Of a DNA stretch of 4,399 nt, positions 1 to 4,399 are shown piece by piece. The DNA is from a virus. Lineage: Duplodnaviria > Heunggongvirae > Uroviricota > Caudoviricetes. The stretch lies in the IMG/VR virus record IMGVR_UViG_2671180695_000010; one strand, given 5' to 3'. A program made the translations under genes and the position numbers. The notes under the pieces were generated by a model. The model was given only the letters and a program-made list of their open reading frames with translations. It was not told the origin of the DNA and searched no databases. The first letter of the stretch is position 1. Every line of letters starts with the position of its first letter.

Positions 1-1085
1 GACTGCAGCGTGGCCGCTGCCAGCCCCAGACGGGCATTTTCCCGGTCATTCCATGCGCCCTGAAGGTTGGCCCGGAAAGAGGCGGTTTTTCCCCGGCGCT
101 GGCTCCGGCTCTGGTACCACTGCCATTTTTTATCCGCCTCATCAAATGCCTTCTGTGCACTGGCGAGCATATCCGCTGAGGACTCAGGACGACCGATATC
201 CAGAATGGCATCCCACATCGATTTGAATGCCTTCCCTGTTTTATCCGCCCAGGTCTCCAGTGTTCCCATGTTTTCTTTCAGGCGACGGGTCTGCTCATCA
301 AAGCCTTTCGTGGCGATATCGTTCGCCGCCTGCAATGCCCCGGCCTCGTCTCCGGAACGCTGCAGCTGTGCAACATACGCAATCTGCTCTGCCGTCACGT
401 TACGGAACTGGCGCGCCATCGCCATCAGTCCCGACGTCGGGNNNNNNGCAAAACGCGCGACACTCTGGTTGATGGCATCAAACTGTTCACCACCACGCAC
501 ACCGGCATTCACCAGGGCTGCCAGTGACTCACTCGCCTGGTTAAACGTCAGCCCTGCGGCCTGTCCGGCTCTGGAGAGCGTCAGCATGCGATCGGCAGTC
601 AGTCCGGACTGATTACCGGAAAGAACCAGGGTTTTATTAAACGCTGAAAGCGTGGAATCCCCCTGGTACCAGGCGTACGCCAGCGCACCTGTCGCCACCG
701 CCAGCGAGGTGACCCCGACCATCGGCAGGGTGATCGCACCGGCAAGTCCCCTGAACATGGGGATCATCCCGCCGAAGGAGTCCTTCACCTGACCGCCCTG
801 TTGCAGCAGGATCAGCCAGGGATTCTGACCACCGGCAAGCTGCGTGGCGATATCCGTAAACTGTGCGGGCAGGGTTCGCATGGCCGCTTTATACTGCCCG
901 ACGGAAATCCCGGCTTTTTGTGCAGCCAGCGCCTGGCGGCTCAGGCCCTGTTCAACAGCACTGGCGGTTTTTCTGGCGTCAGTCTCCAGTCCGGAAAAAT
1001 GACGCCTTACCCGGCTCATCTGCTCATCGAAACGGACCGCATCCAGACTCAGGTCAATAACAAGATCACCAACCGGCTGGGACAT
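1..1085 (-). CDS. H: Tail tape measure protein (lambda gpH-like), N-terminal ~361 codons; 3' end runs off the window at position 1; interrupted by a 6-nt N run at 442-447
   Basis: Not in the ORF track because no stop lies in the window. My translation from the ATG at 1085-1083 (minus strand) gives MSQPVGDLVIDLSLDAVRFDEQMSRVRRHFSGLETDARKTA..., closely matching the lambda gpH N-terminus as I recall it (MAEPVGDLVVDLSLDAARFDEQMARVRRHFSG...). A spot check at 601-719 gives VGVTSLAVATGALAYAWYQGDSTLSAFNKTLVLSGNQSGL, again matching lambda H. A GGAGGT Shine-Dalgarno lies 7 nt upstream. Only 1-180, 601-719 and 961-1085 were checked by hand in this frame; no stop was seen there. Confidence 0.9.
   Translation of the reverse strand, partial: MSQPVGDLVIDLSLDAVRFDEQMSRVRRHFSGLETDARKTASAVEQGLSRQALAAQKAGISVGQYKAAMRTLPAQFTDIATQLAGGQNPWLILLQQGGQVKDSFGGMIPMFRGLAGAITLPMVGVTSLAVATGALAYAWYQGDSTLSAFNKTLVLSGNQSGLTADRMLTLSRAGQAAGLTFNQASESLAALVNAGVRGGEQFDAINQSVARFXXXPTSGLMAMARQFRNVTAEQIAYVAQLQRSGDEAGALQAANDIATKGFDEQTRRLKENMGTLETWADKTGKAFKSMWDAILDIGRPESSADMLASAQKAFDEADKKWQWYQSRSQRRGKTASFRANLQGAWNDRENARLGLAAATLQ
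442..447. other. Run of 6 ambiguous bases (N) inside the tape measure gene; assembly or masking artefact
   Basis: Literal 'nnnnnn' in the sequence at 442-447. The length is a multiple of 3, so the H reading frame is preserved across it. Confidence 0.95.
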
Positions 1086-1937
1086 ATCTCACACCTCCGG
1101 AAATCCCCGCTGAAGCCATCATTAATGCGACATCATCCTCGCTGACATCCGCCACATCCGCAGACGATAAAATCTCACGCCCTCCGTCCCCACCAAACCG
1201 GACGCCTCCGGCAAGTCCTGCCGCTTTCTGCATCAGCATTTTTTCCTCATCCGGCATCTCCGTCTGCGCTTCCTCACGCCGGGGGGCAAGCAGACTGAAA
1301 TCAGAGGGATGCATATCCGGATCGCAAAAAAACAGGCTGAGTACGGCGTACGTCAGCCCGGAAAAATGCATATCCAGTTGGGTATCGAGAAAATAATGCG
1401 TACGGTAAAAATGTCGCCAGTCGGCATATTCGGTGGATGTCATCCCGGCAAGCATGGCGCGCCAGTCAGGCCTCCCCATCTCACGCGCCAGTCTGAGGGC
1501 AAAATTCAGCTCGCCGTCGAAGACTTTCCCGCAGAAAAATCATCATCAGTCAGCGCGTTATTTTTCGCCACTTCGGTGCTGTCAGTATCCGCATGAACAG
1601 CCCCGCTCATCCCGGACAGACGCAACACCACATCTTCCGCCCGGGCAATGGCATCCGCAGGCCAGGTGGTGAGCACCTCCTGTTCGATCTGCATCACAGC
1701 CTCATTCATTGACGGTGATGCCGTTTTCTGCGGATGGTTATGCCACAGGGACATCGCCACCAGAAACGCGCCGGTTCTGACGAGATCTTCCACGCTTACC
1801 TGCAGGTTGCCGCTGGATTCTGCCTGTTCTGCACGCCGTTTCAGGAGGGCAAGATGCTCAATACGCTGCAGCGCAGACAATTCGGAAAGCGTGACGGACA
1901 CACCGTTATATTCAAATTGTTCGGTTTTCAGAAACAT
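1066..1937 (-). CDS. T: Tail assembly chaperone fusion gpGT, made by a programmed -1 ribosomal frameshift from the G frame into the T frame at the slippery heptamer 1530..1524; T-frame stop at 1068-1066
   Basis: The T-frame ORF (track ORF 1066..1479 and its upstream extension) translates after the shift as ...GKVFDGELNFALRLAREMGRPDWRAMLAGMTSTEYADWRHFYRTHYFLDTQLDMHFSGLTYAVLSLFF..., matching lambda gpT as I recall it. There is no plausible independent start with an RBS for T. The slippery heptamer sits in the correct phase in the G frame (gcG GGA AAG). Confidence 0.85.
1093..1098 (-). promoter_or_regulatory. Shine-Dalgarno (GGAGGT) for the tape measure gene H
   Basis: Plus-strand 'acctcc' at 1093-1098 reads GGAGGT on the minus strand, 7 nt upstream of the H start codon at 1085. 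It lies inside the 3' end of the T reading frame. Confidence 0.6.
1506..1937 (-). CDS. G: Tail assembly chaperone gpG (143 aa)
   Basis: Track ORF 1506..1937 (-): MFLKTEQFEYNGVSVTLSELSALQRIEHLALLKRRAEQAE...AMSLWHNHPQKT...MNEAV.QIEQEVLTTWP...AEDVVLRLSGM, near-identical in blocks to lambda gpG as recalled. A strong GGAGGT Shine-Dalgarno lies 5 nt upstream of the ATG. Position between V and T/H matches lambda synteny. Confidence 0.93.
   Translation of the reverse strand: MFLKTEQFEYNGVSVTLSELSALQRIEHLALLKRRAEQAESSGNLQVSVEDLVRTGAFLVAMSLWHNHPQKTASPSMNEAVMQIEQEVLTTWPADAIARAEDVVLRLSGMSGAVHADTDSTEVAKNNALTDDDFSAGKSSTAS
1524..1530 (-). promoter_or_regulatory. Programmed -1 frameshift slippery heptamer G GGA AAG (G/GT recoding site)
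   Basis: Plus-strand 'ctttccc' at 1524-1530 is GGGAAAG on the minus strand. In the G frame the codons are gcG GGA AAG (A-G-K), 6 codons before the G stop. Shifting -1 here opens the T frame through to 1066. Confidence 0.85.
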
Positions 1938-1942
1938 GTATT

Positions 1943-1948
1943 ACCTCC
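1943..1948 (-). promoter_or_regulatory. Shine-Dalgarno (GGAGGT) for G
   Basis: Plus-strand 'acctcc' at 1943-1948 reads GGAGGT on the minus strand, 5 nt upstream of the G ATG at 1937, in the 13-nt V-G intergenic gap. Confidence 0.65.
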
Positions 1949-1950
1949 GT

Positions 1951-2703
1951 TTACCCTGCAGCGCCCGCTTCAGTAACGGTGACTTCAGCTACCGTGGCAA
2001 ACTGACCATTACCGGAAATCACGGGGATACTCACTTTTCCAGCCTTAACCCCCGTCACAGTGATCGCCATATCTTTCACAGCAATGGTTCCCGTTGACGG
2101 ATCGGCGGAAACCGCTCTGAACGTTTTGTCGGTTGCACTTTCCGGCTCAAAAGAAACCGTCAGGGTTGTTGTTTTCCCTTTTGCCACCGTACCAGATGTC
2201 GGCGTCACCTTAATCGCAGTGACCGGCGTAATTTCGCTGCGTTCTTCCGCCACAGAAGGTTTACCCACGTTGGTCACTTTCACCGTACGGGTGATCACTT
2301 CCTTCGCCGTTACGGCCTTACCGATACTGCTGACCCAGCCACGGAACACATCCACCGTGCCGTTCGGGAAACGGATTTTATAGGCCCGCACATCCCCGCT
2401 TTCAAACCAGCCTATAAGCCCTTTCTGACCTTCTTCTCCCGGTTTCCAGGCCAGCGTAAAACTGGTATCTCCTGCAGACTTCTGCCCCTGCCCGGTCGCA
2501 GTCCAGTCCGCGTCTTCATCATCCAGGTAGTTATCATCGTAGGGTTCTGCCGTCATCTCGCCCGGCGTCAGATCCTTTACCTGTGCCAGTCGCTGCCAGT
2601 TATCGTCTGACAACGGGTTTGCATAGGCATCACCCTGACCGTTATAAACCCACAGGGTGGTACCGGCACCTTTTACCGGTGCCAGAGGATTTGGTGTTGG
2701 CAT
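1951..2703 (-). CDS. V: Major tail tube protein gpV (250 aa) with a C-terminal Ig-like (Big_2-type) domain
   Basis: Track ORF 1951..2703 (-): [33 protein letters not shown]...[43 protein letters not shown]...[44 protein letters not shown], matching lambda gpV as recalled. The C-terminal ~90 aa is T/V/S-rich and beta-strand-like, as in the lambda gpV Ig-like domain. Confidence 0.95.
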
Positions 2704-2710
2704 ATCGTCC

Positions 2711-3106
2711 TCACATCTCGTATGTAATGGAATAAGTCAAATCAGCAGAACTCCATAACGCCATATCGTCATCACGACGATACTCATAGCCCTGCGTAAC
2801 CATCGTGGTAATCAGGCCTGACAGTGCCGGGATCGCACTCATCGCCGGATAAATCCGGCTTTCCATCCACGAATCCAGCTCTGAATCCGGCACCTGAGCA
2901 GGCAGGAAAACTTCAATATGCAGCTCCGCCTGCCAGGTATCGCTGTCCAGCGCTTCGCCCGTGTATTCAGCGCCGGTGAGATAAACAGCAATTGCCGGAA
3001 AATCCGCCTCATCAAAAACAGCGGGGCGACCATCAAACAGCGTCGCCCCGTGTTCATGCTGCTCGAGTGCATCCAGCACTGCAGCACGGATATCAGTATG
3101 TTTCAT
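2711..3106 (-). CDS. U: Tail terminator protein gpU (131 aa)
   Basis: Track ORF 2711..3106 (-): [131 protein letters not shown], same length as and near-collinear with lambda gpU as recalled. The start codon overlaps the Z stop (ATGA). Confidence 0.95.
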
Positions 3107-3678
3107 CGCTTTATCACAATCCTTAGTTGTTGTTTCAACGCATAGCCCAGTTCTTTTGGCAGACGTTCTCGCCGGATACGGTTAACGTTCTCATCAAAAG
3201 CCTGCTTCAGTGGGGCCGCCATCGGAATTTTAACCACCTGAATGGGAAGACGATTACGCTTTTTCCTTCCTTTATCGTCATTGCCCTTCGCATACCGGGC
3301 TTCTGGCAAACGTTGCATAACATGCCAGCGCCCATTATTTAATCGCTGGATGAATGCCCGCTGATAACGATGCTGACCGGCTTTAAGTATGCTGTTCGGA
3401 CGATGACCAAGCATCCTGATCCCCAGCTTAATAGCAGGGAGATCACCGCGGTTAACGATAATTCTGGCATTCGGATTTCTGACCGTCGCCCGTTTCAGTC
3501 TGGACCGTTCCTTTACCAGTTTCCGGCTCACCCTGGTCTCCCGGGCAACCTGTGATGAAGACTGATTAATCGCCGTTGTAGCCACGCGGTTAATAGCCAT
3601 TGCTGAAGCCGACGGAATGGCGTTTTTACGAACCCGGCTCAGATTTTCAATCGCCTGATCAAGCCCTTTTATCGCCAT
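3103..3678 (-). CDS. Z: Tail completion / minor tail protein gpZ (191 aa)
   Basis: Track ORF 3103..3678 (-): MAIKGLDQAIENLSRVRKNAIPSASAMAINRVATTAINQSSSQVARETRVSRKLVKERSRLKRATVRNPNARIIVNRGDLP.IKLG...AFIQ.L.NGRWHVMQR...KIPMA.PL...F..N..RIRRERLPKELGYAL.QQLR.VIKR, matching lambda gpZ at both termini as recalled. Position between FII and U matches lambda synteny. Confidence 0.93.
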   Translation of the reverse strand: MAIKGLDQAIENLSRVRKNAIPSASAMAINRVATTAINQSSSQVARETRVSRKLVKERSRLKRATVRNPNARIIVNRGDLPAIKLGIRMLGHRPNSILKAGQHRYQRAFIQRLNNGRWHVMQRLPEARYAKGNDDKGRKKRNRLPIQVVKIPMAAPLKQAFDENVNRIRRERLPKELGYALKQQLRIVIKR

Positions 3679-3692
3679 AATTCACCCTGCGT

Positions 3693-4046
3693 TTATCGTC
3701 GCCGGTTAACTGCGGGTGGTTGCCCACGGTTCAGCCAGAGATAACAACTGCCCCCGTCATCCGGAGAAACACGATCCACCCAGAACATCTCACCATTAAT
3801 GGTCAACGTGTCACCACGCCGCACGGCACGAACCGTATCCGTCCGCACAAATAATGACGGGCTGCTTCCTTCAATACGGATCCCACTACTGGCAAACCCC
3901 AGCGACTCCGGATCGTCAAAAACCCCCTGAACTTCGCCGCCACGCTGTGCACCGGAGGTGAACTGCGCACTGATGCCCATCACTTCAACAATCGTACTGT
4001 CCACCCCGGCAAGGGCGGCATCAAAGGCATTCTGAAAATCACGCAT
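3693..4046 (-). CDS. FII: Head-tail joining protein gpFII (117 aa from the ATG at 4046)
   Basis: Track ORF 3693..4082 (-) contains MRDFQNAFDAALAGVDSTIVEVMGISAQFTSGAQRGGEVQGVFDDPESLGFASSGIRIEGSSPSLFVRTDTVRAVRRGDTLTINGEMFWVDRVSPDDGGSCYLWLNRGQPPAVNRRR, matching lambda gpFII (MADFDNLFDAAIARAD...SPSLFVRTDEVRQLRRGDTLTIGEENFWVDRVSPDDGGSCHLWLGRGVPPAVNRRR) at the same 117-aa length. The start was chosen by homology at the third in-frame ATG (4046) rather than the track's 4082. Confidence 0.9.
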   Translation of the reverse strand: MRDFQNAFDAALAGVDSTIVEVMGISAQFTSGAQRGGEVQGVFDDPESLGFASSGIRIEGSSPSLFVRTDTVRAVRRGDTLTINGEMFWVDRVSPDDGGSCYLWLNRGQPPAVNRRR

Positions 4047-4399
4047 AAACAGCCATTCCACCATCAACGTGTGTTTTTGCATCTGAGGACATAATCAGAA
4101 TCACCCGACCAACATCCGCAAGCTCAACGGATTCCCCCGTTTCACCATCAACGCCACAGAGATGGAGGCAGGTCAGAACTCTGATGCGCGTTAACGCGCC
4201 GGATGTTTCCTCACGAACATCATGAGCCGCGTTTTCCCTCTCCCGGATATCCATATTCATAACCTGTACATCATCGCCGGATGACTGCATTTCCTCTTCC
4301 CATTCTGCCACCCGCTGCGCTATCTCTGCGGCACTCCCGGATATATCCGGCTCACGCCCCAGAATCAGGGCCAGTTCATCAAGCCGTTTCAGATTTTGC
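4039..4399 (-). CDS. FI: Probable DNA-packaging / head assembly accessory protein gpFI-like; 5' end off-window, stop at 4041-4039
   Basis: The minus-strand frame is open from the window edge (4398) to the stop at 4039: QNLKRLDELALILGREPDISGSAAEIAQRVAEWEEEMQSSGDDVQVMNMDIRERENAAHDVREETSG... The track's 'start' at 4311 is an internal GTG. Assignment rests mainly on synteny (immediately upstream of FII, as in lambda) and the acidic character; I cannot verify identity to lambda FI from memory. Confidence 0.65.
   Translation of the reverse strand, partial: QNLKRLDELALILGREPDISGSAAEIAQRVAEWEEEMQSSGDDVQVMNMDIRERENAAHDVREETSGALTRIRVLTCLHLCGVDGETGESVELADVGRVILIMSSDAKTHVDGGMAVYA

Follow-up and report, generated by a model that had tools for sequence, protein, structure and literature searches.

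The tail tube of phage lambda is built from the major tail protein gpV, a protein of 246 amino acids with an N-terminal tube-forming domain and a C-terminal Ig-like domain. Structures have been solved for this protein (6p3e, 7t4f, 8iyk), including its N-terminal (2k4q) and C-terminal (2l04) domains. Ring-to-ring growth depends on two acidic residues in a loop of the tube domain, D61 and D62 (PMC8718954). The Ig-like domain is located at the tube surface, where its contact within the ring is small and where it can take up several arrangements (PMC8718954; PMC12617516). In its absence tails still form, but the biological activity is about 100-fold lower; adhesion to carbohydrates by this domain has been hypothesised but 'remains to be experimentally verified' (PMC8718954). 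A peripheral, surface-exposed location is common to the Big_2 domains of phage structural proteins; that of lambda is aligned with the tube axis and contacts an adjacent subunit, while that of T5 projects orthogonally (PMC8718954). Big_2 Ig-like domains are also carried by other proteins, such as T5 pb6 (at its C-terminus) and the capsid decoration protein of N4, and the bacterial surface Big_2 domains of LigA, SbsC and Big_2-CBM56 share the beta-sandwich with the C-terminal domain described below.

The gene described here lies in a stretch of 4,399 nucleotides, hereafter the window, to whose positions all coordinates refer unless they are counted within V. E. coli chromosomes match the window over its whole length, the best match being strain ML35 (99.8%). 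Among 5,426 complete E. coli genomes, 3,752 match some of the window and 1,532 cover at least 80% of it, so that the window represents a common lambdoid prophage tail region. Every sizeable ORF supported by a protein family is found on the minus strand, in the order FII-Z-U-V-G-T-H of the lambda tail module. FII (3693-4082, minus strand) is recognized by Pfam Phage_attach and Z (3103-3678, minus strand) by Minor_tail_Z. The longest ORF for FII encodes 129 amino acids versus 117 in lambda and its Pfam match begins at residue 19, indicating that the listed ORF over-extends upstream and that the true start is probably an internal ATG. The tail terminator gene U (2711-3106, minus strand; Phage_tail_U, E = 3.7e-61) is located directly upstream of V and its product is 85.5% identical to U of lambda. 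At about 2900-3050 on the minus strand, a central patch of U shows 95-97% nucleotide identity to lambda, as compared to 57-85% for the flanks of U and for Z. Against the PhiR12 phages, which match well on both sides of this patch, its identity is only 72-77%, and judging by these values it is a further small mosaic segment.

Directly downstream of V, the tail assembly chaperone gene G (1506-1937, minus strand; Phage_TAC_2, E = 1.4e-50) encodes a protein 71% identical to G of lambda and is followed by the T frame (1066-1479, minus strand; Phage_tail_T). A lambda-type -1 frameshift heptamer, G GGA AAG, occurs in the zero frame of G at 1524-1530 on the minus strand, within the codons GCG GGA AAG (Ala-Gly-Lys) and shortly before the stop codon of G at 1506-1508. 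Since a -1 slip at this heptamer enters the frame of the T ORF, the G-T fusion chaperone looks conserved in the window. The tape-measure gene H is on the minus strand as well, with its start inside the window and the remainder beyond the left end. H contains a run of six Ns at 442-447 (minus strand). In ML35, 4,453 bases correspond to the 4,399 bases of the window and the match is aligned in two pieces, thus the Ns appear to represent about 60 masked or missing bases.

V itself (1951-2703, minus strand) encodes a protein of 250 amino acids ending with a TAA stop codon at 1951-1953 (minus strand), an assignment which is based on the ORF list, on the Pfam families Phage_TTP_12 and Big_2 and on a phmmer match to lambda gpV. 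Searched against PDB sequences, V matches the full-length lambda gpV 6p3e with an E value of 1.3e-122. Its tube-forming domain (residues 1-156; 2236-2703, minus strand), assigned by Phage_TTP_12 and by its identity to lambda gpV, is matched by Phage_TTP_12 (PF16461) at residues 18-152 over all profile positions (1-135 of 135) with 228.8 bits (E = 2.2e-68; curated cutoff 26.1 bits), and by the solved gpV N-terminal domains 2k4q (E = 1.6e-86) and 7t2e. A model of the full-length protein retrieves 7t4f with a Foldseek E value of 1e-31. The C-terminal domain of this model is confident, and its low-confidence loops (residues 1-12, 45-77 and 149-160) coincide with loops whose flexibility is reported for the NMR structure of lambda (PMC8718954). 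V and lambda gpV share D61 and D62, the residues of polymerisation, which are invariant in 28 aligned homologues.

As in lambda, V shows the two-domain architecture and is located between U and G: it stands between the Phage_tail_U and Phage_TAC_2 genes, the Phage_tail_T frame comes next, and all of them share one strand. The two proteins differ by their C-terminal end, which reads TEAGAAG in the window and TAS in lambda, the last four residues (GAAG) extending beyond the C-terminus of lambda gpV. Differences in the N-terminal domain are clustered at residues 21-38 and 87-105, and the allele class of the C-terminal domain is not that of lambda. By every feature that could be tested, V thus belongs to the lambda-type gpV proteins and its C-terminal domain to Big_2, and the stretch 1951-2703 is the ordinary V gene of a lambda-like E. 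coli prophage. Public databases already contain this exact 250-residue sequence on 991 contigs, named for instance 'phage tail protein' or 'Phage major tail protein'; it corresponds to UniRef A0A0L1FAA9, whose 90% cluster comprises 1,492 members. Gene and protein are therefore already known and form a textbook lambda-type tail tube with domain structures solved in lambda, and the locus is of little importance beyond its correct annotation.

The linker and the Ig-like domain occupy residues 157-250 of V (1954-2235, minus strand), as supported by the Big_2 profile, the match to 2l04 and the structural model. Read on the minus strand, this interval encodes 94 amino acids, the peptide of 93 residues given in the first-pass annotation being the same without its leading Glu. 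On the full protein, Big_2 (PF02368) scores 59.9 bits (E = 2e-16) at residues 160-241 (1981-2226, minus strand), and on the isolated C-terminal 94 residues 62.2 bits (E = 4.7e-17) over the entire profile (positions 1-79 of 79), with a curated cutoff of 22.8 bits. The C-terminal NMR structure of lambda gpV, 2l04, is retrieved with an E value of 2.4e-26 in the PDB sequence search. An AlphaFold2 model of the same 94 residues (pLDDT 87.2) presents eight strands and superposes on the C-terminal domain of lambda gpV in 7t4f with a TMq of 0.93 and an rmsd of 0.7 Å, on 2l04 with a TMt of 0.82 and on the Big_2 domains of 7quz with a TMq of 0.83-0.85. The other Big_2 domains give a TMq of 0.72-0.85, an rmsd of 1.4-3.6 Å and an identity of only 23-28%. 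The first reading of this sequence, which proposed a lambda-type major tail protein V with an Ig-like domain formed by its last 90 residues or so, is therefore borne out by profile search, structure prediction and superposition.

The first-pass annotation also considered the C-terminal domain as more diverged than the N-terminal one, and the comparison of both domains across lambdoid V proteins agrees with it. The alignment of V with lambda gpV covers 246 residues with no gap, and the identity amounts to 131 of 156 positions (84.0%) in residues 1-156 versus 54 of 90 (60.0%) in residues 157-246 (Fisher p = 5.3e-5). An N-terminal domain similar to lambda 'almost residue-for-residue' was thus slightly overstated, given 25 differing residues, but the asymmetry itself was correctly described in direction and size and goes well beyond chance. 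Across the 45 pairs formed by ten codon-aligned lambdoid V genes (the window, PhiR12_2_star, VT1-Sakai, PhiR12_1, Stx2_14040, lambda, phi80, N15, mEp460 and Fels-1), the N-terminal domain is without exception the more conserved; divergence is thus not uniform across the two domains. When these ten are joined to 68 database representatives of normal length, the N-terminal identity exceeds the C-terminal one in 2677 of the 3003 pairs formed by the 78 proteins, with mean identities of 83.4% versus 61.1% and mean column entropies of 0.47 versus 1.11 bits. Family-wide, the amino-acid distance is about two to three times larger in the C-terminal domain, and dN is typically two to three times higher. 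Nevertheless, P187, R196, G222 and G233 are invariant in every class of the C-terminal domain, and the Big_2 fold is kept throughout.

Selection was assessed solely by pairwise Nei-Gojobori (NG86) dN/dS per domain, a measure that averages over sites and is blind to diversifying selection at few exposed positions; omega was below 1 in both domains in every computable pair (0.04-0.26 for N, 0.09-0.51 for C), several distant pairs being saturated with a dS that could not be computed. Both domains of V therefore remain under purifying selection. Against lambda, omega is not raised in the C-terminal domain (0.10 versus 0.14 in the N-terminal domain), and dS reaches about 3.0, a value both saturated and imprecise, versus 0.86 in the N-terminal domain. 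Similarly, identity at third codon positions is 34% in the C-terminal versus 60% in the N-terminal domain. The excess divergence being equally strong at synonymous sites, it points to N- and C-terminal segments that differ in age relative to lambda rather than to a faster protein evolution. In close pairs, omega is higher in the C-terminal domain (0.22 versus 0.07 between the window and Sakai, 0.35 versus 0.04 between PhiR12_2_star and Sakai), which could be due to relaxed constraint or to some positive selection.

Lambdoid phages are well known to be mosaic at the boundaries of genes and domains, and the exchange of V-domain cassettes reported here exemplifies this property rather than a new phenomenon; a literature search for a prior description of domain shuffling in gpV retrieved nothing specific. 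The closest phage record is Escherichia phage PhiR12_2_star, whose V gene is 95.5% identical at the nucleotide level over its whole length, with both domains about 96% identical in amino acids. V of the VT1-Sakai and Stx1a-converting prophages, also of 250 residues and ending with EAGAAG, is 96.8% identical in its N-terminal and 87.8% in its C-terminal domain. VT1-Sakai and the window have V in common, but their Z, U and G are quite different. They also differ by a mosaic patch inside the Ig-like domain (V nucleotides 609-714, codons ~203-238; 1990-2095, minus strand), where nucleotide identity falls to 67.0%, compared to 95% upstream and 100% downstream.

More generally, N-terminal domains 92-97% identical to that of the window are paired with C-terminal domains that are 97, 87, 78, 70, 60 or 36% identical. 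Two database representatives, P0023 from E. albertii (CP117615.1) and P0025, associate a window-type N-terminal domain (95-97%) with a lambda-type C-terminal domain (96-98% identical to lambda), and P0021 presents the reciprocal association of a lambda-type N-terminal domain (97%) with a Sakai-type C-terminal domain (97%), closely related to that of the window. Counting the window and lambda, each of the four possible combinations of these domains thus exists. In PhiR12_1 and P0076, a window-type N-terminal domain (92%) is followed by a C-terminal domain that is only 36% identical. The N-terminal class of the window comprises 24 cluster representatives with four C-terminal classes, among which 13 carry the lambda class and 8 the class of the window, these counts being of representatives at 90% identity and not natural abundances. 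Because the domains reassort, the low C-terminal identity to lambda mostly reflects a different and old class of C-terminal allele, not the faster evolution of one lineage.

At the DNA level, the transitions are sharp. From Z through V nucleotide 425, the E. albertii prophage is nearly identical to the window (about 100%, range 98-100%), with 3 mismatches in V nucleotides 1-425, whereas 113 mismatches are found in the 328 nucleotides that follow and the sequence is lambda-like through G and T. A max-chi2 test places the breakpoint after V nucleotide 425 (codon 142), and the observed chi2 value is reached in none of 300 permutations. The switch to lambda-like sequence at codon ~142, compared over 2279-3500 of the window, suggests a recent exchange of the head-proximal tail segment between prophages of E. 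coli and E. albertii. PhiR12_1 is 94% identical to the window in V nucleotides 1-310, 91.5% in nucleotides 311-440 and about 50% in the C-terminal domain, then 88-100% from the start of G onward. The max-chi2 breakpoints for PhiR12_1 and for lambda fall after V nucleotide 440, again with none of 300 permutations reaching the observed value. To judge from these identities, PhiR12_1 represents the replacement of the C-terminal domain alone, as a cassette restricted to this domain. The crossovers that exchange the C-terminal domain are located within or at the end of a near-invariant block at the 3' end of the tube domain (V nucleotides 311-440, codons 104-147; 2264-2393, minus strand), in which the lambda, window and Sakai types share 90-97% of their nucleotides, as compared to 54-76% identity to lambda in the flanks. 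On the other side of the cassette, crossovers are found at the V stop codon and at the V-G junction.

We consider it highly probable that the window encodes a lambda-type V whose outer Ig-like domain is more diverged through a combination of lower constraint and modular recombination of cassettes. According to this explanation, the N-terminal domain would form the hexameric rings of the tail tube, stacked around the tape measure protein, and the Big_2 Ig-like beta-sandwich (residues ~160-245) would decorate the outside of the tube on a short flexible linker. By analogy with lambda, the outer domain would be unnecessary for building the tube but would improve infectivity, possibly by weak contacts with neighbouring subunits and/or with cell-surface carbohydrates. 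The virion function proposed for the domain of the window is thus the one expected from lambda, and nothing in the window suggests another mechanism. The term 'dispensable', initially applied to this domain, is appropriate for assembly but not for full function, considering the roughly 100-fold loss of activity following its deletion in lambda (PMC8718954). Two causes, each of them measured here, would account for its divergence, namely a lower constraint, both domains being still under purifying selection, and the exchange between lambdoid phages of several old classes of C-terminal alleles, the window prophage carrying the PhiR12_2_star/Sakai-type allele and not that of lambda.

The lower constraint is visible in the two- to threefold higher dN of the C-terminal domain in most pairs and in its about twofold column entropy, and lambda can form its tube without this domain (PMC8718954). 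That it is simply a nearly neutral, faster-drifting appendage, with no role of recombination, is however very improbable, since nearly identical N-terminal domains (92-97%) are paired with C-terminal domains ranging from 97% to 36%, and since the reciprocal chimera P0021 and the abrupt breakpoints are left unexplained by drift, which the breakpoint tests contradict. Moreover, the invariant residues and conserved fold, an omega of at most about 0.5 and the cost of deletion in lambda indicate that the C-terminal domain is under selection. The first-pass annotation had rather seen in the divergence a possible adaptation to host or environment, and a glycan-binding Ig-like domain may indeed diverge faster under positive or diversifying selection for hosts or niches: the domain is exposed at the surface of the tube (PMC8718954; PMC12617516), several distinct classes of C-terminal alleles coexist in E. 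coli prophages, omega is three to nine times higher in the C- than in the N-terminal domain in close comparisons, and part of the variation is concentrated in the patch at codons 203-238. We nonetheless regard this as unlikely, as omega stays under 1 for each pair that allowed its calculation and is not elevated against lambda, protein-level adaptation does not explain an excess equally marked at synonymous sites, the sharp DNA breakpoints denote allele replacement instead of accumulated point changes, and the domain has no known binding partner (PMC8718954). The tests performed hence provided no support for adaptation.

The C-terminal domain might also diverge together with its chaperones G and GT, in which case the mosaic unit would comprise this domain, G and T. 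The E. albertii prophage, which switches the C-terminal domain, G and T together to the lambda type, is compatible with such a co-adaptation, as is the contig of P0021, where a window-type G (97-100% nucleotide identity) stands beside a Sakai-type C-terminal domain. On the contrary, PhiR12_1 exchanged its C-terminal domain only and kept a window-type G (88-100% nucleotide identity), and VT1-Sakai has a similar C-terminal domain with a G that is only 40-58% identical. These two cases rule out an obligatory linkage of the C-terminal domain with G, and co-adaptation as an explanation of the divergence is hardly plausible. Under the preferred explanation of lower constraint and cassette recombination, a C-terminal domain found 'more diverged' in a single comparison with lambda is in large part a recombinant allele that has its own history, and per-domain identity to a single reference is therefore not evidence of faster or adaptive evolution.

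A bolder proposal would consider the Ig-like domain of V as a discrete and exchangeable specificity cassette, of which at least four deep classes on this N-terminal backbone would be kept in populations of E. coli prophages by balancing or diversifying selection, the near-invariant codons 104-147 acting as an inbuilt linker for recombination. Selection might come from differing surface glycans, for instance O-antigens or capsules, or from the need to escape a host or immune factor that recognises the tail surface. We hold this to be decidedly unlikely. Should the C-terminal classes be found to track host surface chemistry, they would however offer a simple natural test of weak adhesion by phage Ig-like domains, a long-standing and unproven idea.

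Some homologues of V departed from the common architecture. About 33 records of Stx2a-converting phages match only the last ~40 residues of the Ig-like domain, with at least 95% identity. The possibility that these phages carry the domain on a different protein was ruled out by the one locus that was read, in Stx2a_JNE110649 (1158-3123), where a V remnant limited to the last ~40 codons abuts ORFs for IS-type transposases located directly upstream. Downstream of the remnant, G, T and H are intact and the G protein is 100% identical to that of the window. The Stx2a matches are thus V remnants truncated by IS, and the prophages concerned would, from this arrangement, harbor no tail tube gene at this locus. 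Similarly, homologues of 320-401 residues (P0001-P0007) were rejected as new architectures, as the four that were read (P0001-P0004, 350-401 residues) show internal duplications or joins, for instance N-C-partial-N-C, and each of them is present on one or two contigs. These long V proteins are most likely artefacts of assembly or gene calling in genomes harboring several lambdoid prophages.
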